Positions 6,867 through 57,249 of a DNA stretch of 64,000 bases are shown in pieces. The notes below the pieces were generated by a model. That model was not told where the DNA came from, did not search any database, and saw nothing but the letters and a program-made list of their open reading frames with translations. The DNA is from Eledone cirrhosa. Taxonomy: Eukaryota. The position numbers and the translations under genes are program-made. Each line of letters opens with the position of its first letter. Within the stretch, counting starts at the first letter, position 1. The stretch lies in NCBI GenBank assembly GCA_964016885.1, contig OZ024742.1, positions 171,244,001-171,308,000 of the forward strand, read 5' to 3'.

Positions 6867-7940
6867 ATGTATATATATATATAGTCGCGTGCGTGCGTGT
6901 GATAAGATGCACATGTACGTATATATATATGTGCTTCGTGTGTATGTATGCGCGCCTTTGTATGTACGCATGTATGTGCTTTTGTCTGTACGTATTTATA
7001 TATATATTTATATATATATATATGTGTATGTACGAACCTATGTTTTTTCTATTTTTTCTAGTGTTACTTTATAATTGATAACCCCTCCCTCATACTTTTT
7101 CTTTGATTTAATTTTTTTATTCTCATATATTTTTTCATTTTTTTCATTTTTATATATGTATCGACCTTCAGCCTGACATTGCTTTGACTGATACACTCCA
7201 TTCCCTGTATATATCACTCGCATGTATGTGGTTGCGCGTGTGTGTGTGTTTATACGCGTGCTTTCATACTTGTATGTGTATATATTTCAATCCTTAGTAG
7301 CTGAGTCTGGATGTACGCTAACTCTATTATCTTACAACTTCTTTTTCAACATATATTATATACGTATTTGTGATCACACATACACTGATATGCTTGCGCT
7401 CATATATGTACTTACGCACACATTTTTTCACTATACTCATGCATTTGTACATACACACATATGTACATTTGTGAGTGAATATACACACATTTATACACAT
7501 ACCCTAACTATATTTCCTTATTTTATTTTTATATATCTCTTGCGTTACTTTTATTTATATATTTTTTTGCCCGTTAAACTTTTGCCTTTCTTGAGGAGAT
7601 TTTTCAAATATTTTACTATGTTTTAAATTGTCTGACGAACGAATGAGGACGTTTCTTGTATTCCACTTATTCGGGAAACCTCTAGTAATGAGGTAATTAT
7701 ATTGTATTGTTTATTATACATTAAATTTAGCTCTGGTACTTACATAGAGCACTCTTCACTCCTATGACTTTTTCAATTTTCAACGGAAAAACTTCAATGC
7801 TTATATATATATATATATACATACTTAGAATATATATATAATTATATATACTTATATATAATATATGTAGAAATAATCACAGTAAATTGTTGATTGCAGG
7901 GTATCAATATGAGTTAGTAACTCTGTATTTTATTTGTATA

Positions 7941-7999
7941 TAAGTATTGAGTACTCTGATGCGTTATGGTCCATCTGTTTCCTTACCACACCTCCTTCG

Positions 8000-8001
<2 letters not shown>
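7941..8001 (+). mobile_element. Family A short retroelement, 3'-terminal fragment
   Basis: Matches the 3' terminus (...CCTTACCACACCTCCTTCGTT+(TA)n) of the copies at 54035-54228 etc. Confidence 0.75.
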
Positions 8002-8078
<77 letters not shown>

Positions 8079-8096
8079 TATATACATATATATATA

Positions 8097-8414
8097 AATG
8101 GAAAAAAATGAAACGAAATTTCATTTCTCACTCTTAGTACGGCTGTTACTTAAATATAAGTATGTATACGTACATTAATATATGTATACAGACGTACAGT
8201 AGTATGTATATATATATACATACATGCACACATATATATGTACGTATGGATTTACTGAACATTTATTATAATGCTCGGTTTGTTTGTAAACAAACATCCC
8301 GAATTGAGCCGTACAGTGTTTAAGCAACCATCGTTGCCCTTTTGTTCAACACTGACAAAGGAACGATGTACTAGTTTCAAGCTTATTAGCTATCGTCAGC
8401 AACGTATACCTTCC
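8097..8414 (-). mobile_element. Family G retrozyme-like partial monomer
   Basis: Homologous to the ~430-nt unit at 45552-45984. Contains an HHR and is preceded by (TA)n. Confidence 0.8.
8363..8405 (-). ncRNA. Type-I hammerhead ribozyme (family G)
   Basis: Minus strand: ACGTTG-CTGACGA-TAGCT AATA AGCTT-GAAAC-TA-GTA-CATCGT. Confidence 0.75.
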
Positions 8415-8416
8415 TG

Positions 8417-8590
8417 CCACACCTCCTTCGTTATATATAACGAAGGACGTGTGGTAAGGAAACAGATGGACCATAACGCATCAGAGTACTCAATACTTAG
8501 GCTAGTAGAGTGTGTAATAAGAGAATGTTTAACCCCGACGGCAGAGCTCAAGCCGTTTCGACGGCTATTTCTGGACTAAATTTAGTCTGG
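8417..8590 (-). mobile_element. Family A element (3' half of HHR), with a tail-to-tail 3' stub
   Basis: CCACACCTCCTTCGTT-ATATAT-AACGAAGGACGTGTGG junction. The minus strand has GTC-GAAAC-GGCTTGAGCTCTGCC-GTC-GGGG. Confidence 0.7.
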
Positions 8591-14470: not shown

Positions 14471-16487
14471 GTATTGTCCCCTTTTCTTGTACGCCACAAG
14501 GGCGTACAAGAAAAGGGGACAATACAAAGACACATGCAAAGACACATTCAGTCGTGTAAAAAAAAATATAAAACAAACAATTATAACAATCAAAATCCCC
14601 AATAGGGGGAGACGCCACAAATAGGTTGTTTAATACCCCGTCGAAAGAACAACCCTCAACTTCAGGAGCGTGTTGTGGAAGTGCTCCCTTCTTCATTTTG
14701 CTCTCTTCTTTAACCTACAGGCTTATAAACAGAGATTCCCACTCACTCGGGTCATTTTCGTTTCATTCACCCACCTTTCAGTAAATTTACTGGGGTGCAG
14801 TGCCTCTGATTCTTCACTCTGATTCTTCTTCTAAAGTGATACTTAAAGAAGGGAATCAATTGTTGTCCAGAGAGAAAGGCATCTGTCCTAATTCCTCTCA
14901 AACTCGTCCACCATATAACCTCTTTCACCATAGCCTCTGTACAGAGGAAAACCGGAAAGCCACCTCTCTTTCGTTTTTGAAAGAGGCTGGCAGTTTGGTC
15001 CTTACTATGGACTCTGTAAGCAACTGGATTTGTCCCATACGCGACAGCAGTTGTTCTGCATAGTTCCACAGGTCGCTTACGCCCGAGCAGTGTACAATTG
15101 AGTGTAAGACGGTTTCAATGTCCTGCTCGTATCTTGGACACGTCCTTTTGGAAGGATCCCTGCCGGGGCGTCCGTGCTTGTAGATCTTATCGCGAACGGG
15201 TAGAGCTCCTCGGTAGCACTGCCAGGCCAGGGACCTCTGGAAGTTGTCCATAGATTCCGGGCGGAAAGTCCTACCGAACAGACTGGTGAGCTCGTCGTCT
15301 TCGAAGCATAGAGTCTCCCCGAGCACGTCGTCGCACTTGTAAAGTACTAACCCTCTATAGAATGTCGAAGTGGAGTCTTCACTGATTACTGTGCCCGCTT
15401 GACAGAGGACTATGAGCGCCTGGGCGCATTCAACATGCCAGGTGCCCATCTTCTTCGGTCTTCGTTTGACCCAGGACTGCAGCTCCGTCAGCGAGACAAG
15501 TTGTGGGAAGGCCTGTCTCACAAACGGTGCCCACACCGGTTGGTCGGTGAGGAATACCTGAAGATGGCGTAGCCTCAGCTCATGTTTGCGCATCATTAGC
15601 CACGGCATGCCCAGCCCTCCGTTGGAGGGGTGTTGACAGCAGACGGATCTCCTCACCAGTGGAGCCTGCTTCTTCCACAGGAACTGGAAGAGTATGCGTT
15701 CCATCTTGGAGAGGTATTCACGGGGAGAAGGCACGACAGTCAAGCGGTAGTAGATGACGGACGCTATGAAAGTGTTCGCCACCTCCGCTCGACCTTTCAA
15801 AGACAGTTTGCACTCTGTCCACTTCTGGGTGAGCGCAAATACCTTGGTCATGACCTCGTTCCAGTTTTTCTCCACCATGAGGTTTGGACCGAACCAGACC
15901 CCGAGCAATTTCACCGGTCCTTCCGTCCAGCGTCCGGCCACGCTGTCGGACGGCATCGGTTTGCCTCTCCACGTTCCGAGTTGCAAACCGACAGACTTGT
16001 CCGGGTTCAGTTTTGCTCCTGTGAACCTTTCGTAATGCTGTAGTAGGTTGCCGATTACCTCGATTTCCGAGGTTTTCGACACCATTACCGTTACGGCGTC
16101 GCTATAAGAGGAGGCCGCTTTTCGCAGTCCCGGTTCTAAAGGGATGCTCTGCAAAAGCTCCAACTTCCGCAGTAGTGGCTCTAGAGTCAATACGTACAGA
16201 ATGGAGGAGAGAGGGAATCCCTGTCGAATGGAACGCGTGATTGCGAGCAGATGCTGGTGTGCATCGCCTTGATCCAGCCTCTGAAAACGGGACCGAAACC
16301 GGCCGCCTTGAGAACCGCTCCCAAGTATCGATGGTCGACCCTATCGAATGCCTTAGACTAATCTAAATTAATCAGAGCCCCACCGAAGCCGGGTTTACAC
16401 CCCACCCTCTCTATGATGTATCGCATGAGGTGGAGGCTGTCGTGTATGGACCTGGTCGGGATTGCACACGTTTGCGCTTTCCTACCA
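14471..16487 (-). pseudogene. Tx1/L1-clade LINE, 5'-truncated and degraded (copy B): partial RT plus zinc finger
   Basis: ORFs 14925-16190 and 16358-16630 align to the ORF2 of copy C. YADD is changed to YSDA, there is an internal deletion near 16240 and a frameshift near 14950. Flanked by (TAGA)n. Confidence 0.9.
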
Positions 16488-16504
16488 GATAGATAGATAG
16501 ATAT

Positions 16505-19500
16505 ATTTCTTTTATTTGCCACTAGGGCATCAAAAGTGGGACAAGTACAAAGGGGGGAGTTTACACAAAAAGGCGTCCCCAATAAGGAGGAGGCAATAAC
16601 AAAATATAAAAATAAAATAAGATATAACAAAAAATAAAATTTTTAACAAAATCCTCAATAGAGAGGAGGCGCCTTGGGGGGTCGCACACACCCCCGAAAA
16701 AAGTGTGCAACCCTTCTCCTCAGGAGCACAGAGAAGGGGTGCTCCCTTGGTCTTTCATCTTCCTCACCTATAGTCTGATGTAGAGTGAAGGCCCATTCAC
16801 ACGGGCCATTCTCGCCACTTTCACCCATCTTTCATAGAAACGGCTGGGGTGCAGCACCTCTCTCTCCATCCTGATCCTTCTTCCGAAATGATATCGGAAG
16901 AAACGGACCAGTTGTTGGCCAGAGAGAAAGGTGCCCGACCTCAGTCCTTTCAGACGCGTCCACCATACAACCTCTTTCGCCATGGCTATTACGCACAGAA
17001 ACACCGCCTCTGCTTCATCTTTGAAGGGGGGAGGCGGCTTGATCATTACAATAGACTCGGTGGTCAACCGGATCGGTCCCACCCTTGACAGCAGTTGTTC
17101 GACATAGCCCCACAGATCGGCTACGCCCGAGCAGTGTACTAATGCGTGTGCAACGGTTTCCTCGTCGCACACGCATCTGGGACAGATCTTTTTGGCGGGG
17201 TCCCTACCCGGGCGCCCGTGTCTGTAGAGCCTTTCTCGAACGGGTAAAGCCCCTCGGTAGCACTGCCAGGCCAGGGACTTCTGGAAGTTGTCCATAGGTC
17301 CCGGGCTGAATGTCCTACCGAAAAGGCTGGCCAGTTCGTCCTCCTCCATGTCTAGGGCTTCTCCGAGGGCGTCGTCGCACCTGCTGCGTACCAGCCCTCT
17401 ATAGAATGTTGCGGTGGAGTCTCCACTGATAACCGGATCCGCCTGCCAGAGGGCGGTGAGCGCCTGGGCACACTCAGTGTGCCAGGCGCCCAGTTTTCTC
17501 GGTCTTTGCTTGACCCAGGATTGCAGCTCGGTGAGTGAGACGAGTCTGGGAAAGGTTCGTCTCACAAACGAGGCCCACACCGGTTGTCCGGTGAGGAATA
17601 CGTAGAGGTGCCGTAGCCTTAATGCGTGTTTACGCATCATTAGCCACGGCATCCCCAGCCCTCCTTTCGAAGGGTGTTGACAGCAGATGGATCTCCTCAC
17701 CATAGGAGCCCGCCTCTTCCAAAGGAATTGGAAGAGCGCGCGCTCCATCTTGGTGAGGGTTTCCCTTGGGCAGGGCACTACGGTCAGGCGGTAGTAGATG
17801 ACGGACGCTATGTAGGTGTTCGCCACCTCCGCCCGACCTTTCAGGGATAGTTTGCAACTGGCCCACTTCTGGGTCAGTGCAAACACTCTGTTCGTAACCT
17901 CCGCCCAGTTTTTCTCCACCTGGAGGTCCGGTCCGAACCAGACCCCGAGCAACTTCACCGGGCCCTCCGTCCAGCGTCCGACGACGCTATCGGAGGGCAT
18001 CGGTCTGCCCCTCCACGTGCCGAGTTGCAAACCGATCGACTTGTCCCGGTTCAGCTTAGCCCCTGTGAACTTTTCGTACTCCTCCAGTAAGGTGCCGACC
18101 GCCTCGATTTCGGAGGCCGTCGACACCATTACTGTCACGTCATCGGCGTAGGCCGACACCGCTTTCCGCAATCCCGGTTCCAAAGGGATGCCCTGCAACA
18201 ACTCCAACTTCCGCAGTAGTGGCTCGAGAGTCAATACATACAGAAGGGAGGAGAGAGGGCACCCTTGTCGGATGGACCGCGCGATTTTGAACGGCTCCGA
18301 GAGGTAGCCGTTCACCTTGACCCTAGAGCAGATGCGGCTGCTGTGCATAGCAGTGATCCAGCCCCTGAAAACGGGTCCGAAGCCTGCCGCCGCTAGCACC
18401 GCATCCAGGTAACCATGGTCGACCCTATCGAACGCCTTAGATTGATCCAAGTTGATCAGAGCCCCACCAAAGCCGGGTTCGTTCCCAACCCTCTCTATGA
18501 TGTATCGCATGAGGTGGAGGTTGTCATGGATGGACCTGGACGGGATAGCGCATGTCTGCGCATCTCCCACCAGGTTGCCCACGACAAGCGCCAACCTCTT
18601 TGCTAGCACCTTGGCCAAAATCTGTAACTCTGTATTTAGCAGTGTTATGGGCCTGAAGTTACTTATTTCGTCCCCCTTGTTCTCGTCCTTCCTCACTAGC
18701 GTGACTACGCCCTTGGTCACAGTACAGGGAATTCTCCCGTTCTGTTGCCAGTTGCAGTAGACCGCCTCGAGGAGATCGGGGAACAAGTCCGGCATAGCTA
18801 GATATAATTCGTAAGGAAGACCATCGAGACCCGGGGATTTGCGTTTGCCGCATTGGCTCAGCACGTCCTCTATCTCAGCGGCCGAAATCGGCTCCTCGCA
18901 GGACTTCGCCTCCCTGTCCGAGAGGCGCGGCAGGCCGTCGAGGTATGGACCGAAGTCCACGTTCCCAACCGGCTCCCCGCCCCTCCCGAACAGTCGGGCA
19001 AAGTGCCTTTGAAAGGCCTCACACATCTGCTTAGGCTCAAGAATCGCCCGTCCATCCAGGTCTCGCAAAGACCGGATGGTGGATTTAGTTCCACTGTTGG
19101 CCTCTGTCACGCGGGCCCAGCTAACAGCTTTGGTCCCCTCGTTCCCTAGAGCACGTATTTTACTTCGGACAACGCAGCCTTCGTGCTTCGCGTCGAAAAA
19201 CTGGCTCAAAGCCGTTCTCGACGCTAGCACTCTGGCCACGTCGCCGCTTCTAATTGCCTCTTCTACTCTATCTATTAGCTCCCTTTCCTTCCTATTCCTA
19301 TCCGCAGCTAGAACCTTACTAAATTCTATCGAGACTACTCTAATCTCTCTCTTTAGAGATACCCACCACCTGCTGTTGACGATCGCTCCAGTCAACCGTT
19401 CCTTAACTAACGTACTAATCCGATTCCTGTAGGCTCTACTTGCCGGCAAGGACAAGTTGAGCTTCCAGTAACCGGGGCCCTGTCTATGAGTTCTGTCAAG

Positions 19501-20178
19501 GTTGACCATGCAGGTCACTAATTTGTGGTCTGAATAGCCAACAATGCGCATTTTTGGACAACTTAAAAAGTCCTTATCCTTAATTCTAACTAAGAACCTA
19601 TCTAGGTACGACCTAGATGATCCGCTACGATTTGCCCAAGTCCAGGTTGGCGCAGTCGGAAAATCTAGTCGATATCTATCGGCCAGGTCAAATCGACCGA
19701 TTAACCCTTTGAGGCTATTACACCCCTCTCTATCGGGGCAGGCCCCTACGTAGTCCCAGCGTGCATCTAGGATACCATTCCAGTCCCCCACTAATAGCAA
19801 GGAGCGGGACGTCCCCAGAAAAGTCTCCAGACGATGGAAGAAGTCCGGCCGCATTGACCCGAAAGGGCCGTAGGCGGCTACCAACCTAAACGCTCCGCCT
19901 TTACCACTGCCAAGGTCCAGAACCACTAGTCGACCCTCCGGGTCCAAATGTACCATCTGTGTTGCGAGACCCAGATGTTTTTGCAGCAGAACGACAACTC
20001 CACCCCCACCTCCAGGCTGACAGAGAGATGCGTGCATCTCAAAGTCATCAAAGGTGGGGGCCAGCTGTCGCACGTTGCTGATCCGGGCCTCGCAAATAAC
20101 CATCACATCTATACGTTGTGACCTGAGGTCATTTAGAAGCATTGCTTGCTTCCAAGTTGAGCCCAGGCCACGCGCATA
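16505..20178 (-). mobile_element. Tx1/L1-clade non-LTR retrotransposon (copy C): near-complete ORF2 plus 3'UTR, no ORF1
   Basis: GC-rich block bounded by (TAGA)n on both sides and containing an open ORF2. Confidence 0.92.
16768..20142 (-). CDS. LINE ORF2 polyprotein: APE endonuclease, reverse transcriptase and C-terminal zinc finger (Tx1-like)
   Basis: EN motifs DVMVICE, LLVGDWN, YLDRFL, SDH. RT motifs SPGLDG, FRPITLLN, LDQSKAFDRVDH, RQGCPLS, AYADD. C-terminal CPRC..ETVAHALVHC. The frame stays open upstream to 20178 (xARGL). Confidence 0.93.
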   Translation of the reverse strand: MLLNDLRSQRIDVMVICEARISNVRQLAPTFDDFEMHASLCQPGGGGGVVVLLQKHLGLATQMVHLDPEGRLVVLDLGSGKGGAFRLVAAYGPFGSMRPDFFHRLETFLGTSRSLLLVGDWNGILDARWDYVGACPDREGCNSLKGLIGRFDLADRYRLDFPTAPTWTWANRSGSSRSYLDRFLVRIKDKDFLSCPKMRIVGYSDHKLVTCMVNLDRTHRQGPGYWKLNLSLPASRAYRNRISTLVKERLTGAIVNSRWWVSLKREIRVVSIEFSKVLAADRNRKERELIDRVEEAIRSGDVARVLASRTALSQFFDAKHEGCVVRSKIRALGNEGTKAVSWARVTEANSGTKSTIRSLRDLDGRAILEPKQMCEAFQRHFARLFGRGGEPVGNVDFGPYLDGLPRLSDREAKSCEEPISAAEIEDVLSQCGKRKSPGLDGLPYELYLAMPDLFPDLLEAVYCNWQQNGRIPCTVTKGVVTLVRKDENKGDEISNFRPITLLNTELQILAKVLAKRLALVVGNLVGDAQTCAIPSRSIHDNLHLMRYIIERVGNEPGFGGALINLDQSKAFDRVDHGYLDAVLAAAGFGPVFRGWITAMHSSRICSRVKVNGYLSEPFKIARSIRQGCPLSSLLYVLTLEPLLRKLELLQGIPLEPGLRKAVSAYADDVTVMVSTASEIEAVGTLLEEYEKFTGAKLNRDKSIGLQLGTWRGRPMPSDSVVGRWTEGPVKLLGVWFGPDLQVEKNWAEVTNRVFALTQKWASCKLSLKGRAEVANTYIASVIYYRLTVVPCPRETLTKMERALFQFLWKRRAPMVRRSICCQHPSKGGLGMPWLMMRKHALRLRHLYVFLTGQPVWASFVRRTFPRLVSLTELQSWVKQRPRKLGAWHTECAQALTALWQADPVISGDSTATFYRGLVRSRCDDALGEALDMEEDELASLFGRTFSPGPMDNFQKSLAWQCYRGALPVRERLYRHGRPGRDPAKKICPRCVCDEETVAHALVHCSGVADLWGYVEQLLSRVGPIRLTTESIVMIKPPPPFKDEAEAVFLCVIAMAKEVVWWTRLKGLRSGTFLSGQQLVRFFRYHFGRRIRMEREVLHPSRFYERWVKVARMARVNGPSLYIRL

Positions 20179-20221
20179 TAGATAGATAGATAGATAGATG
20201 GAGAGAGAGAGAGAGAGAGAG

Positions 20222-20307
<86 letters not shown>

Positions 20308-20956
20308 CAGAGAGAGAGAGAGGGGGGAGAGAGAGAATCGAAGAATCTTTCCCAGTAATTAATTGATGCAGTAATTATCGGCCTCGAAAGGATGAAAGGT
20401 AAAGTTGTCATTGGCGTGATTTGAATTCATAACGTACAGAGCCAGAACGAGTATTTCGAAGCATTCTATTCAGTGCTCTGACCAATCCACCCTGCTTATA
20501 TGTTAGAATTTGTCAAAGATATCAAAAGGGTTTTCGACAAAGAAAAAAAGAAAACAAACGACAACTTACCAATTACTAAAAGATAAACATGTTTTCTGAT
20601 CGTGTCTTTAGAACTGATTTGGCATTCATATACACCGTTATGTTTGCATTGTACATTTTTAATTTGAAGGTTCCACTCATGTGCAGATGGTACTCTGTGT
20701 ACACTATACGTATTGTCCTCAATATAAGGCTCTTCTGATACCGTAAGTGGGTTCGGGTCAGATGCTTTCCGCCATATAACCTATAAAAAATAAAAGAGTA
20801 ATTAATACTTAAAAATGAATATTTGTTGTGTTAATTATTAATGATTAACAAGTCTTGAAACTGTGATTGATTTCTACCATTTATAAACTTTATTACTTTC
20901 TATACACACGCAAGCTTGCACACAAACACACATGAACACACACGCACACACTCACA

Positions 20957-43170: not shown

Positions 43171-45267
43171 GAAAGGAAGATATATATATTGAGAGAAGTA
43201 GACATACATAAAGCTAGAGAAGGGGAGGTGAGTGTGAAAAAGAACGATAGATATATACGATAGAAGGATTAAGGAAGAGAATGAGTGAATGATTGAGTGA
43301 TTGTAGGCTAGATTGAGTGAGGAGGAAAGACTTGAGAAGGAAAGATTTCTTTGCTGTAAATGTATTCAGCAACATAAGGCCATATTTCCTAATAGTAAAT
43401 CGATTTTAACAATTCCATGCTTGTTAAGTATTTTAGTAACGACTTTAGCAATCGATTATTACTGCTATTTTATGGTTTTTCCTTTTTATCAACATAATTG
43501 ATTCGGCCATTTACGGCAGTGATTATGACAAGAAGTACTTTGCAACTTGTTTATATTAATTTCTTCTTCTCCTTTCTTAACAGCAATATAAGAGAAAGAA
43601 AAAAGAACGAATCATCTTTGAAGGTTGTGGGGAAAGTGCCTAAGCTTTGGATAATGTATTTCTCTGACGTTATCAACTCAGAGAAGTTTTTGAGACTATT
43701 TTCACATTATATTCGGAACAGCGATCGCTTTGAATCCTCATGGTAATTAACAACCTTTGCTTAGATGCGAAAACCTCCTTTATCGACTATATCGAATCTA
43801 TATTTTAACACATTCCTAAATTTACATGACTTAAAGAGATTGTGTACATCAGTAAAAGGGGGAATATGTTTTGTCATGATAACCACCATTATACTTGTTC
43901 ATCGGGGCTGAAAATTATCTATTCTTCTCTGAATTTGTCTGGTCTGCGATTCTAACCAATAAGCAAATGTTCTGTAAAGCAAGTTTAAGACACTGGAAGT
44001 GTTGGAAGCGATCGTTGCAAATCCTATTATCTGGAATACCATCAGGTGGTAAATGTCTTTTTGTGTCCCTCAGGGCATATAAAGAAGTTACTTAGATTCA
44101 TTTTAAAGTCGATAGATAACAGATAAGTTACATTATTGGACAAGAACACGTCATTCGCCGATAGGATTCCTAGATTTGCTTCCTATACCCGTCAGCTTCG
44201 TGAACTGGGCCGTGAAGAAAATTCAAGTGCAGTTCACTGGACAGAAACAACACATAACATATTAACTTATTTCGCGGCTTATTACATGCGTTTTCCCCCA
44301 TAAAATGTCCCTGAAAACCATTGTTTCTTATAATCAGAAAGTCAGAGCCGGAGGTTATAAGTTTGGAGAGAGGATTTCAAGCTAAAATGAGATCAGCGGG
44401 GAAGCATTGGGTCTATCGTTAGTTTTAACCCACCTACATAATAAACCTGACTTTATTTCTGTTTCCAAAATTATATATATTTGTTTTAGATTTAGCGAAC
44501 CATCCTAGTTTGTGATTAATTAGTCAGAATTAGCGAGGATTTCAAGCTGAAATAATGTCAGGTAGGCTTCAAAAGATTTTTCAGCATATTACCTTTAATA
44601 CTGAGGTGCATCTAATACATTGGAACGTCTTATAAGCAAACATTTGAACATAAGATGTGTGGTCTCGATGTCATATACCTTCATCAATATGTATCAATTT
44701 ATTGCAAAGTCACGTGCTTTAGTGATAATGTACTTGGCTCACAATCGTAAGGTCGTAACTTCGATTCCATGCGGCACAGCGTCCCCTCGTGCATAGCATT
44801 ATACTTCAGGTTGTTCTAGTTCACTCAGTTGGAAAAAAAAAATGATTTATATCTGTAATTTAATGAGCCACCCTTGTTACACACTGCATTAAGCTGAATC
44901 TCCTTGAGAACTTCATTAAAGGTGTACGTAGTTATCGAAATTTAAGCCGCTTGCACGTAAATTTCACGAGTTGTCTCTTCCTTCATTTGAACGGTTGGAA
45001 TATCATCACCGGCGATGTCGGAAGTTCAACAACATCAACTGCAGCAGCAACAGCAACAATAACAATAGCAACAACAACCACGTGATAATAATAATGATAA
45101 TGGTTTCTGATTTAGGCACAAGGCCAGTAATTTTGAAGAGGAAGGGAAAGTCGATTAAATCGCCCCCAGTGCGTGACTACAAGCCCAGCTATTCTGAACT
45201 AAGAAGTTAGACATTAATATGTACACCCCCCCCCCACACACACATATATGTATATATATTTTTTTTA

Positions 45268-45456
45268 ATATAGAAAAGCTTCTACAGTACTAGAACTGTT
45301 TTATTCGTGAGAAATCATTAGGCGCTTCCTGATGATTTCTCACGAATGAAACAGTTCTAGTCATGTAGAAGCTTTTCTATATTAAAATATTTATACTCTG
45401 TTATGTATTGAGTACCTTACTTACTGTGGTTAACCCCGATTGAACCCGGAATAACG

Positions 45457-45457: not shown

Positions 45458-45544
<87 letters not shown>

Positions 45545-45819
45545 TATGTATATGGAAAAGAATGAAACGAAATTTCATTTCTCACTCTTAGTACGGCTGA
45601 TACCTAAATATAAGTATTTATATGTACATACATATATGTGTACAGACGTACAGTAGTATGTATATATATACATACATGCACATATATATATATGTATGTA
45701 CGTATGGGTTTACCGAATATTTATTATAGTGCTCGGTTTGTTTGTAAACAAACAGCCCGAATTACGCCATACAGTGCTCGGCGACCATTGTCGCCCTTTT
45801 GTTCAACACTGACACAGGA

Positions 45820-45862
45820 ACGATGTACTAGTTTCAAGCTAATTAGCTATCGTCAGTATCGT
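45820..45862 (-). ncRNA. Type-I hammerhead ribozyme (family G)
   Basis: ACGATA-CTGACGA-TAGCT AATT AGCTT-GAAAC-TA-GTA-CATCGT. Confidence 0.75.
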
Positions 45863-46248
45863 ATACCTTTCTGTCAGATAATTGAACGTTTGAAAGTATA
45901 TACTTTCCTTATGCATATTAACAGCTGAGCAGCCTATTTTGCATATCGAGTGAGTTAGTCGGCCGGGCGCACCGAAAACGATAAATGGAAAAGAATGAAA
46001 CGAAATTTCATTTCTCACTCTTAGTACGTCTGATACCTAAATATAATTGTTTATACGTACATACATATATGTATACAGACGGAGAGTAGTATGTATATAT
46101 ATATATACATGCACATATATATATATGTACGTATGGGTTTACCGAACATTTATTATAATGTTCGGTTTGTTTGTAAAGAAACAGCCCGAATTACGCCGTA
46201 CAGTGCTCGGCGACCATCATCGCCCTTTTGTTCAACACTGACACAGGA

Positions 46249-46291
46249 ACGATATACTAGTTTCGAGCTTATTAGCTATCGTCTGTATCGT
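46249..46291 (-). ncRNA. Hammerhead ribozyme copy with mutated core (family G)
   Basis: Same fold, but the core reads CAGACGA instead of CTGACGA. Confidence 0.55.
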
Positions 46292-46732
46292 ATACCTTTC
46301 TGTCAGCTGATTGAACGTTTGAAAGTACATACTTACCTTATGCATATTAACGCCCTTTTGTTCAACACAACACGATGATGGTCACCGAACACTGTACGGC
46401 TTCATTCGGGCTGTTTGTTTACAAACAAACCGATCATTATAATAAATGTTCGGTAAATCCATACGTACATATATATATCTGTGCATGTATGTATATATAA
46501 ACATACTACTGTACGTCTGTACACATATATGTATGTACGTATAAATACTTATATTTGGGTATCAGCCGTACTAAGAGTGAGAAATGAAATTTCGTTTCAT
46601 TCTTTTCCATCTATCGTTTTCGGTGCGCCTGGCCGACTAACTCACTCGATATGCAAATTAGGCTGCTTAATCGTTAATATGCATAAGGAAAGTATATACT
46701 TTCAAACGTCCAATCATCTGACAGAAAGGTAT

Positions 46733-46775
46733 ACGATGCTGACGATAGCTGATAAGCTTGAAACTAGTACATCGT
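46733..46775 (+). ncRNA. Type-I hammerhead ribozyme (family G), intact
   Basis: ACGATG-CTGACGA-TAGCT GATA AGCTT-GAAAC-TA-GTA-CATCGT. Perfect 6-bp stem I and GUA cleavage triplet. Confidence 0.85.
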
Positions 46776-47039
46776 TCCTTTGTCAGTGTTGAACAAAAGG
46801 GCAACGATGGTCACTGAACACTGTACGGCGTTACTCGGGCTGTTTGTTTACAAACAAACCGAGCATTATAATAAATGTTCGGTAAACCCATACGTATATA
46901 TATATATGTGTGTATGTATGTATATATATACATACTACTGTACGTCTGTACACATATATGTATGTACGTATAAATACTTATATATATATATATATCATAA
47001 AACATATCTATGACTTTATATATATATGTGTGTGTAAAC

Positions 47040-47083
<44 letters not shown>

Positions 47084-47120
47084 TAAAATAACAGATTAAA
47101 GTTTAAGCAAAGAATCGCTG

Positions 47121-47161
<41 letters not shown>

Positions 47162-47227
47162 TATTTATACGTACATGCATATATGTGTACAGACGTACAG
47201 TAGTATGTATATATATATACATACATG

Positions 47228-47299
<72 letters not shown>

Positions 47300-56700: not shown

Positions 56701-57127
56701 TTAATTAGGTTTATTGTATTTAAATGTTCTTCGTATACGGTGATTACAAACTATGATTAGTTCCTGCCTTTTATTTAATAAATCGTCCTTAGATTTAGTA
56801 ATTACCAAGAACTCCCCTGAACATAATCTGCATTCCCTCCTGTTCCCAAGATATGGAGTTCTTTGTAGAATGGTGTTCCACGATAACTTGAAATCTATTT
56901 TTTTCTTTTTATAATTATTTACCGCTTCAGCTAAAGATGTGGTGTTAGCTAGTTTAGTATTGTTGAAACTACTAGAGTGTGCGCAAAATCTTTTCTTAAA
57001 TGTGTTTGATGTAGATCCTATATATGTTTTGTTGGAGTCTGTAGTAGACACAGTGCATTTATATATTACATCATTAATCAAACAGTTGCCATTTAAGGGG
57101 CAAATGCTTCTATTTCTGCAATTACAG
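56701..57127 (-). pseudogene. Penelope-like element (Neptune-type) GIY-YIG endonuclease domain
   Basis: GCNCRNRSICPLNGNCL Cys motif, followed by VIY..YIGST..FKKRF..H, CRLCSGE and LLNKRQEL..CNH. Confidence 0.85.
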
Positions 57128-57249
57128 CCTTACGTAAGAAGGTTGTTGGGGTGCCTATACTATTCTCATTAATCCTTGATCTATTCCTATTGTAATTAAT
57201 GATACCAGGAGAATGAAGGTTGTTTTGTGGATGGTTTGGTGCTAGGAAT

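Follow-up and report, generated by a model that had tools for sequence, protein, structure and literature searches.

The array at 45552–46981 of the window, the whole 64,000-nucleotide stretch of DNA that was analysed, is read here with moderate confidence as an aged head-to-head insertion of an ORF-less element of the non-LTR retrozyme type, which a PLE, probably of the Hydra clade, would have copied from what was likely a monomer circle. The element class is already known, the family being assignable to the non-LTR retrozyme type with the integration marks of PLEs. A PLE origin of vertebrate retrozymes has been argued from co-occurrence and pLTR likeness (10.64898/2026.07.22.740005), and the enzyme that moves animal retrozymes, as well as the circle as its template, are stated to be open questions (PMC7229834, 10.64898/2026.07.22.740005). 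The evidence for a helper enzyme is unusually direct in the present genome, where a young family with a copy number above 28,000 coexists with an intact, very active candidate enzyme. A literature search that covered mainly openly accessible article text found neither this family described nor fusions between retrozymes and PLEs, nor the one-site-per-end rule set out below.

Architecture of the window locus

The repeat unit at the window locus has a period of 429 nt and is numbered from the first base 3′ of the predicted cleavage site (window position 46770). The locus consists of 1.86 units in minus orientation, an 18-nt filler and 1.4 units in plus orientation, arranged head to head within a (TA)n tract, of which the sequence retains a (TC)n(TA)n target tract on the left flank (45459–45551) and a (TA)n tract on the right flank (46982–46996). 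The left arm spans 45552–46352 on the minus strand (left edge 45549/52); its outward 3′ end lies at the long site with tail (unit position about 270–274) and its inward end at unit position 332. The right arm (46373–46981, plus strand) starts at unit position 33, and its outward 3′ end falls at the short site (about 214–217) with no tail. The filler (46351–46368, minus strand) is an inverted copy of unit positions 17–34, followed by a short repeat, and its source is the stretch directly 5′ of the plus-arm start. These measurements bear out the original prediction, which had described a minus block of ~1.85 units with hammerheads at 45820 and 46249 (429 apart), an 18-nt templated filler at 46351–46368 and a plus block of ~1.4 units with an intact hammerhead at 46733, as well as further pieces near 8097–8414 and 47160–47230, the latter now measured at 8094–8419 and 47155–47245.

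Three type I hammerhead motifs are found in the array. The motif at 45820–45862 (minus strand) has an intact core and a mismatch in the first stem I pair, whereas that at 46249–46291 (minus strand) carries an altered catalytic-core letter and is likely dead. The motif at 46733–46775 (plus strand) is intact, with predicted cleavage between 46769 and 46770, a 6-bp stem I that extends with bulges, a stem II of 4 bp with U.U as its closing pair, and a one-base-pair helix III that is palindromic; when the entire window was scanned on both strands with strict type I criteria, no other motif passed. As only the plus-arm hammerhead is intact, the locus is probably an aged, inactive fossil, whose transcript would probably yield only a long hairpin. 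The units are 6–11% apart from one another, a divergence read as ageing, and have two rare variants in common (4/4 versus 1/80, and 5/5 versus 4/58). The two arms differ at three shared sites, the plus arm having letters typical of another subfamily. The predicted absence of an ORF also holds, in that three stop-to-stop frames of 104–114 aa overlap the array and none of them matches eight PLE proteins.

To the right of the array, a 49-nt stub (47076–47124, minus strand) matches without a difference the 3′ end of the Hydra-like PLE family G1, and is read as a separate insertion in the TA tract common to the array. A 0.2-unit fragment (47155–47245, minus strand) ends at the short site and carries a rare variant common to the window array. 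This fragment is an inverted 90-nt copy of the plus-arm end, 170 bp off, and contains the plus arm's rare variant; it may have arisen by a second priming or by a local fold-back.

Family size and the hammerhead motif

Throughout the 3.0 Gb of genome examined, the exact 26-nt core pattern returns 16,475 matches and its reversed control none, and the repeat is thus not a product of chance. Two looser core patterns give 24,998 and 23,629 matches (reversed controls 0 each), whereas the 19 nt 3′ of the cleavage site have 28,456 exact matches (reversed control 0), and the family comprises at least 28,000 copies. Three subfamilies are distinguished, with natural units of 420–540 nt and arrays of up to 7.5 units. 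The unit has a GC content of 34–37%, and this low GC, the absence of an ORF and the absence of an LTR/PBS/PPT layout are among the traits by which non-LTR retrozymes are defined. One type I hammerhead per unit and the presence of free multimers in the census loci are likewise in keeping with the retrozyme-like family that had been proposed.

A survey of 162 hammerheads from 109 loci, read through outer anchors, reveals an intact catalytic core in 148 of them, and an unchanged cleavage triplet and helix III palindrome (six self-complementary letters) in 153. Positions 10.1/11.1 are U.U in 162/162 hammerheads, which is atypical with respect to the usual G-C, and a variable stem I pair is kept in 156 (G.U in 66, U.G in 46, A-U in 44) and broken in 6. 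The unit hammerhead is described here as a predicted self-cleaving type I motif. Two consecutive intact hammerheads in one array occur in L119, L123, L233 and others, and not at the window locus. In Rfam nothing reaches the gathering score for the motif, and no hammerhead is found among the weak matches listed (150 of 161), which are microsatellite hairpins. Changes on both sides of a predicted pair are seen for 10 of 113 pairs among 14 units, a number reached by 0/500 shuffles and by no slid control, the independent events being few, the three subfamilies related and the structure derived from the same alignment. When folded as circles, three natural units give z-scores of −6 to −9 against 25 shuffles each, due in part to the microsatellite hairpin. 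A self-complementary helix III layout has been tied to dimer cleavage (PMC4209133); PLE hammerheads act as dimers, and squid genomes contain hammerheads (PMC6962438, PMC6765202). For retrozyme dimers of Xenopus, no cleavage in vitro is reported in 8 of 9 cases (10.64898/2026.07.22.740005), which, like the U.U at positions 10.1/11.1 and the Rfam result, speaks against the reading favoured here.

Two further observations concern the distribution of the family. A 4.1-kb palindrome at L233:2745-6900, with 2.4 + 7.5 units that are 98–99% identical, is a good candidate source locus. Contigs of the runs X1 and X4, which by their nature reveal neither ends nor circles, show variants of the family only; among those of X4 (organism B), the unit is matched by six, of which five reach 90% or more, and a related organism may carry the family.

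Two fixed 3′ ends and the one-site-per-end rule

The ends of the copies were determined in a census that drew on the first 40 Mb of contig C1, where 80 regions were taken, each with a listed hammerhead at its centre; 60 of them represent clusters among the 100 matches listed and 20 belong to the third subfamily. As these loci were chosen by an intact hammerhead, longer arms are favoured. The 3′ ends of 134 arms exhibit a distinct two-site distribution, with 56 at unit positions 203–223, 57 at 262–281 and 21 elsewhere, such that two windows amounting to 9.6% of the unit hold 113 of the 134 ends. The two fixed sites are about 57 nt apart, and 90 of the 113 defined ends abut TA. The 5′ ends, on the other hand, are uniformly distributed along the unit (p=0.44). 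Arms of at least one unit number 70, those of at least two units 13 and those of at least three units 8, the longest having 7.5 units. The fixed position of the 3′ ends implies that scatter is confined to the stop points, and the circularly permuted start points for which the original prediction proposed to look are not borne out: reverse transcription starts at two fixed sites.

The two sites are distributed between the ends of inverted pairs according to a simple rule. Both ends could be assigned in 27 of 39 head-to-head neighbours, the 12 with an unassigned end being left out of the test, and 26 of the 27 combine one short and one long end; when a duplicated pair is counted once, 25 of 26 independent pairs are short+long (p=4e-7). 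A landmark method applied to 109 loci gives 20 of 21 pairs as short+long, and its one exception is short+long by alignment. The window locus obeys the same rule (long left, short right), and no tail-to-tail neighbours are present in the 60 loci checked. This pattern is what the earlier suggestion of priming from both ends of a (TA)n break would lead one to expect.

Fixed 3′ ends, an optional tail, variable 5′ truncation and an inverted copy at the 5′ end are together the features of a PLE insertion. Published PLE insertions include partial tandems and carry a truncated copy in inverted orientation, and their tail is often confined to one end (PMC8557442); in vitro the PLE tail maps to two internal RT starts, with both DNA strands being cut and extended (PMC11167929). 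The retrozyme ends match both the tail and the two internal RT starts of those accounts, and PLE-type integration of the family is regarded as highly probable.

Circular or multimeric template

Among the matches listed, 100 of 100 junctions are read through at the cleavage site without an indel, and 0 of the 100 copies start there: 98 contain the upstream hammerhead, one has an internal deletion and one stops a few bases upstream. The absence of such starts, together with the indel-free junctions, argues that cleaved linear monomers are not the main template. Within arms of subfamily B, 71 differences are observed in 15,770 sites (0.45%, after six comparisons from the mis-projected pieces L127 and L168 were dropped; 1.24% with them), compared with 139 in 11,354 (1.2%) between the arms of one locus and a mean of 5.9% between loci, the nearest foreign unit being often equally close. 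At L158, one microsatellite variant is found in all units of both arms. Exceptions to such clonality are L119, which alternates one variant and has the same TA length in units 2 and 4, and L233, which mixes variants. Rolling on a monomer circle fits these data, as it would explain the read-through and the near-clonality mostly in one step. As the junction is also the genomic tandem sequence, junction reads alone cannot prove a circle.

An alternative, which we consider rather unlikely, retains the same PLE-type integration and takes as template an uncleaved linear multimer, or invokes repeated exact template jumps, with unequal crossover later lengthening the arrays; the ribozyme would then be weak or active at another step, and a circle unnecessary. 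In line with such a template, cleavage is dispensable for the Anolis PLE and uncleaved RNA is its main substrate (PMC11167929), Hydra itself yields copies longer than one unit, and 121 of the 134 arms are under 2 units. The two-unit repeat pattern in L119 also points in this direction, and local amplification is favoured by Li et al. (10.64898/2026.07.22.740005). Less easily accommodated are the young palindromes L158 and L119, in which all units of both arms are identical, complex microsatellites included, and the fixed variants by which arrays differ from one another, since these would need a bottleneck of one unit followed by re-amplification. Known animal retrozymes, moreover, accumulate mainly as circles (PMC7229834). 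On balance a circular template is plausible for the family, and is the reading towards which we lean.

A Hydra-clade PLE as candidate helper

PLEs are abundant in the genome (10,595 GIY-YIG candidates), with several Neptune-like families, so assigned by a linker motif for which the clade name is taken from PMC8557442, and several Hydra-like families. One Hydra family contains an 821-aa ORF with RWT, DKT, CxCx5C, CxxC and CxH motifs; as the published definition of the clade comprises RWK-like, DKT, CxCx5C, CxxC and CxH motifs and a C-terminal endonuclease (PMC8557442), the ORF fits this definition by its motifs. All 150 scored matches of this family are 99–100% identical, which would make it a very active PLE; at first look, 61,122 candidates were counted (L201–L212). 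It has (TA)n targets and a hammerhead of its own, which is different and has a long stem II. Its 3′ ends are two, about 90 nt apart, and its full copies are one unit plus overlap, resembling retrozyme arms. In 11 loci with Hydra ends on both strands, the 6 clear inverted pairs are all short+long; a further locus has a complex structure with short ends, and the other four give no information on the rule.

Direct fusions of Hydra and retrozyme sequence, with no TA between them, are found in 2 of 60 loci, both of subfamily B. At L149, a retrozyme arm directly abuts, with its 5′ end, a piece of the Hydra ORF, and the outer ends are a Hydra long end on one side and a retrozyme short end on the other. 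At L159, a truncated Hydra copy with a short end is joined without TA to a retrozyme multimer, the inverted arm of which has a long end. We infer that the two fusions are template switches within one integration event. No fusion is present in the other 49 loci screened, and none was found for the window's subfamily. Taken together, Hydra is likely the helper for the family; neither this helper nor the PLE tail signature figures in the original prediction. The locus L132 was considered as a third fusion and rejected, as the element has inserted there into a copy of a PLE, with about 9 bp duplicated.

The unit could instead be a pLTR that became separated from a coding PLE, of Neptune or a further Hydra family, which is now rare or extinct and which made the window's subfamily, for which the loci screened contain no fusion; this we regard as improbable. 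Such an origin has precedent in Xenopus, where 24 of 57 retrozyme families match known elements, nearly all of them PLEs (10.64898/2026.07.22.740005), and in the present genome a Neptune-type family has a hammerhead that is likewise closed by U.U and palindromic in helix III. It is opposed by the finding that in 0 of 109 loci does a PLE ORF precede the unit as its 3′ UTR; the case named as refuting the original prediction, a unit that is only the pLTR of a coding PLE, is not seen in these loci. None of the Hydra-like loci (30 + 19) carries the unit as its end. Compared with 16 PLE 3′ regions (about 8 families, the genome holding more PLE families than were sampled), the unit gives no alignment above the shuffle level, the remaining signals being one inserted neighbour and weak scores with z of 2.6–4. 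Several candidate parents were also rejected. A PLE ending in the unit is absent from 30 GIY-YIG loci and 20 long-ORF regions, and a likeness by eye between the tails of the retrozyme and of a Neptune element did not hold up against shuffles. The Hydra-like copies of family G1 that adjoin arrays (at L117, L118 and L119, and as the stub in the window) have their own ends, with a TA tract between.

A satellite or foldback that exists as DNA only, bears a hammerhead by chance and has been spread by the repair of cruciform-forming (TA)n sites would account for the palindromic layout and the microsatellite-rich unit, yet is hardly credible in view of the strand-polar fixed 3′ ends with random 5′ truncation (this end polarity already contradicts it), the absence of tail-to-tail pairs, the fusions with PLE coding sequence and the compensatory RNA pairs.

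Among the other PLEs of the genome, those of Neptune type likewise have (TA)n targets and two ends, a point against the reading favoured here. The ends of Neptune-like PLEs at L092, L100, L104, L109 and L110 contain hammerhead-like motifs in which the first core boxes are altered and helix III is palindromic. At L118 and L119, retrozyme copies lie at the centre of inverted G1 Hydra-like pairs and thus form nested palindromes.

Proposed mechanism

In the mechanism that we propose for helper-driven copying of a circle, tandem genomic copies would be transcribed, and paired hammerheads would act in cleavage as a dimer held by the palindromic helix III, the resulting monomers being ligated to a small circular RNA. 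The RT/GIY-YIG protein of a PLE, probably of the Hydra clade, would act in trans, its endonuclease cutting a (TA)n tract on both strands. Reverse transcription would then be primed internally from each of the DNA ends, one per site and probably on the same RNA, and each enzyme would run beyond one full round of the template. Finally, the two cDNA ends would be joined by microhomology or by a short template jump, the latter corresponding to the filler. The complete proposal, i.e. that the Hydra protein binds the circle without a sequence shared with its own ends, primes both ends of the (TA)n break at two fixed sites of a single circle and rolls past the ligation site, is put forward tentatively.

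If true, this proposal would identify the enzyme by which a circular RNA of an animal is inserted into the genome, and one twin-priming mechanism would explain the PLE tail, the pLTR and the inverted copies, and may hold for PLE RNAs. The retrozyme/PLE fusions and the exact predicted start sites make the helper question testable in vitro, and the one-site-per-end rule (25/26 for the retrozyme; 6 clear pairs for Hydra) sharpens the picture of PLE integration.

Relation to known systems

The family resembles the non-LTR retrozymes (Cervera and de la Pena 2020, PMC7229834; Li et al. 2026, 10.64898/2026.07.22.740005) in its ORF-less tandem units of a few hundred nucleotides and low GC, in one type I hammerhead per unit with a short palindromic helix III, and in thousands of dispersed copies with a highly paired predicted circle. 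The unit of 420–540 nt is at or above their reported range (about 150–450 bp). Features that set the present family apart from them are U.U at positions 10.1/11.1, the internal microsatellite hairpin, copies that are mostly of 1–2 units and head to head, two fixed ends, and the lack of a matching parent pLTR among the PLEs sampled.

With Hydra-clade PLEs (Craig et al. 2021, PMC8557442) it has in common (TA)n targets, partial tandems, a hammerhead in the repeat, an inverted 5′-truncated copy at the 5′ end and a one-end tail, whereas the retrozyme has no RT or GIY-YIG ORF and no sequence likeness to the Hydra end. The tail is about 57 nt in the retrozyme, compared with 30–40 reported for PLEs (PMC8557442) and about 90 in the present Hydra family. 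The Poseidon PLE of Anolis (Frangieh et al. 2024, PMC11167929) likewise has two internal RT starts that define the tail, and both strands of AT-rich DNA are cut and extended. Poseidon differs in that it is autonomous, belongs to another clade and was studied in vitro with linear RNA; the available text of that report describes neither a non-coding passenger nor the one-site-per-end rule, both of which are seen here. Non-autonomous Chlamys PLEs such as MRC1 (PMC8557442) are also non-coding, multicopy head-to-tail elements moved by a PLE. In contrast to the present family, they have a 3′ sequence in common with the helper, and canonical hammerheads are reported there as undetected in most Chlamys elements.

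Target sites and neighbouring elements

An independent 0.76-unit copy with a hammerhead and a long end lies at 8094–8419 (minus strand), in the TA centre of a palindromic site (7939–8001 and 8419–8500) that was its recipient, with a flank of about 20 bp duplicated. Flanks related to those of this site adjoin the TA tract at L125, L251 and L100, and hairpin-forming sites may be preferred targets. A 140-bp palindrome at 45255–45395, with arms that are 90% complementary, is possibly a small foldback element, a relative of which is located in the TA tract of L108.

Elsewhere in the window, a non-LTR retrotransposon sequence at 14925–20358 (minus strand) has two ORFs, of 470 aa and 1195 aa, that encode RT and zf-RVT domains, the 1195-aa ORF containing an AP endonuclease domain as well. 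A decayed Hydra-like PLE with 41% identity to the G1 family protein occupies 56707–57147 (minus strand).
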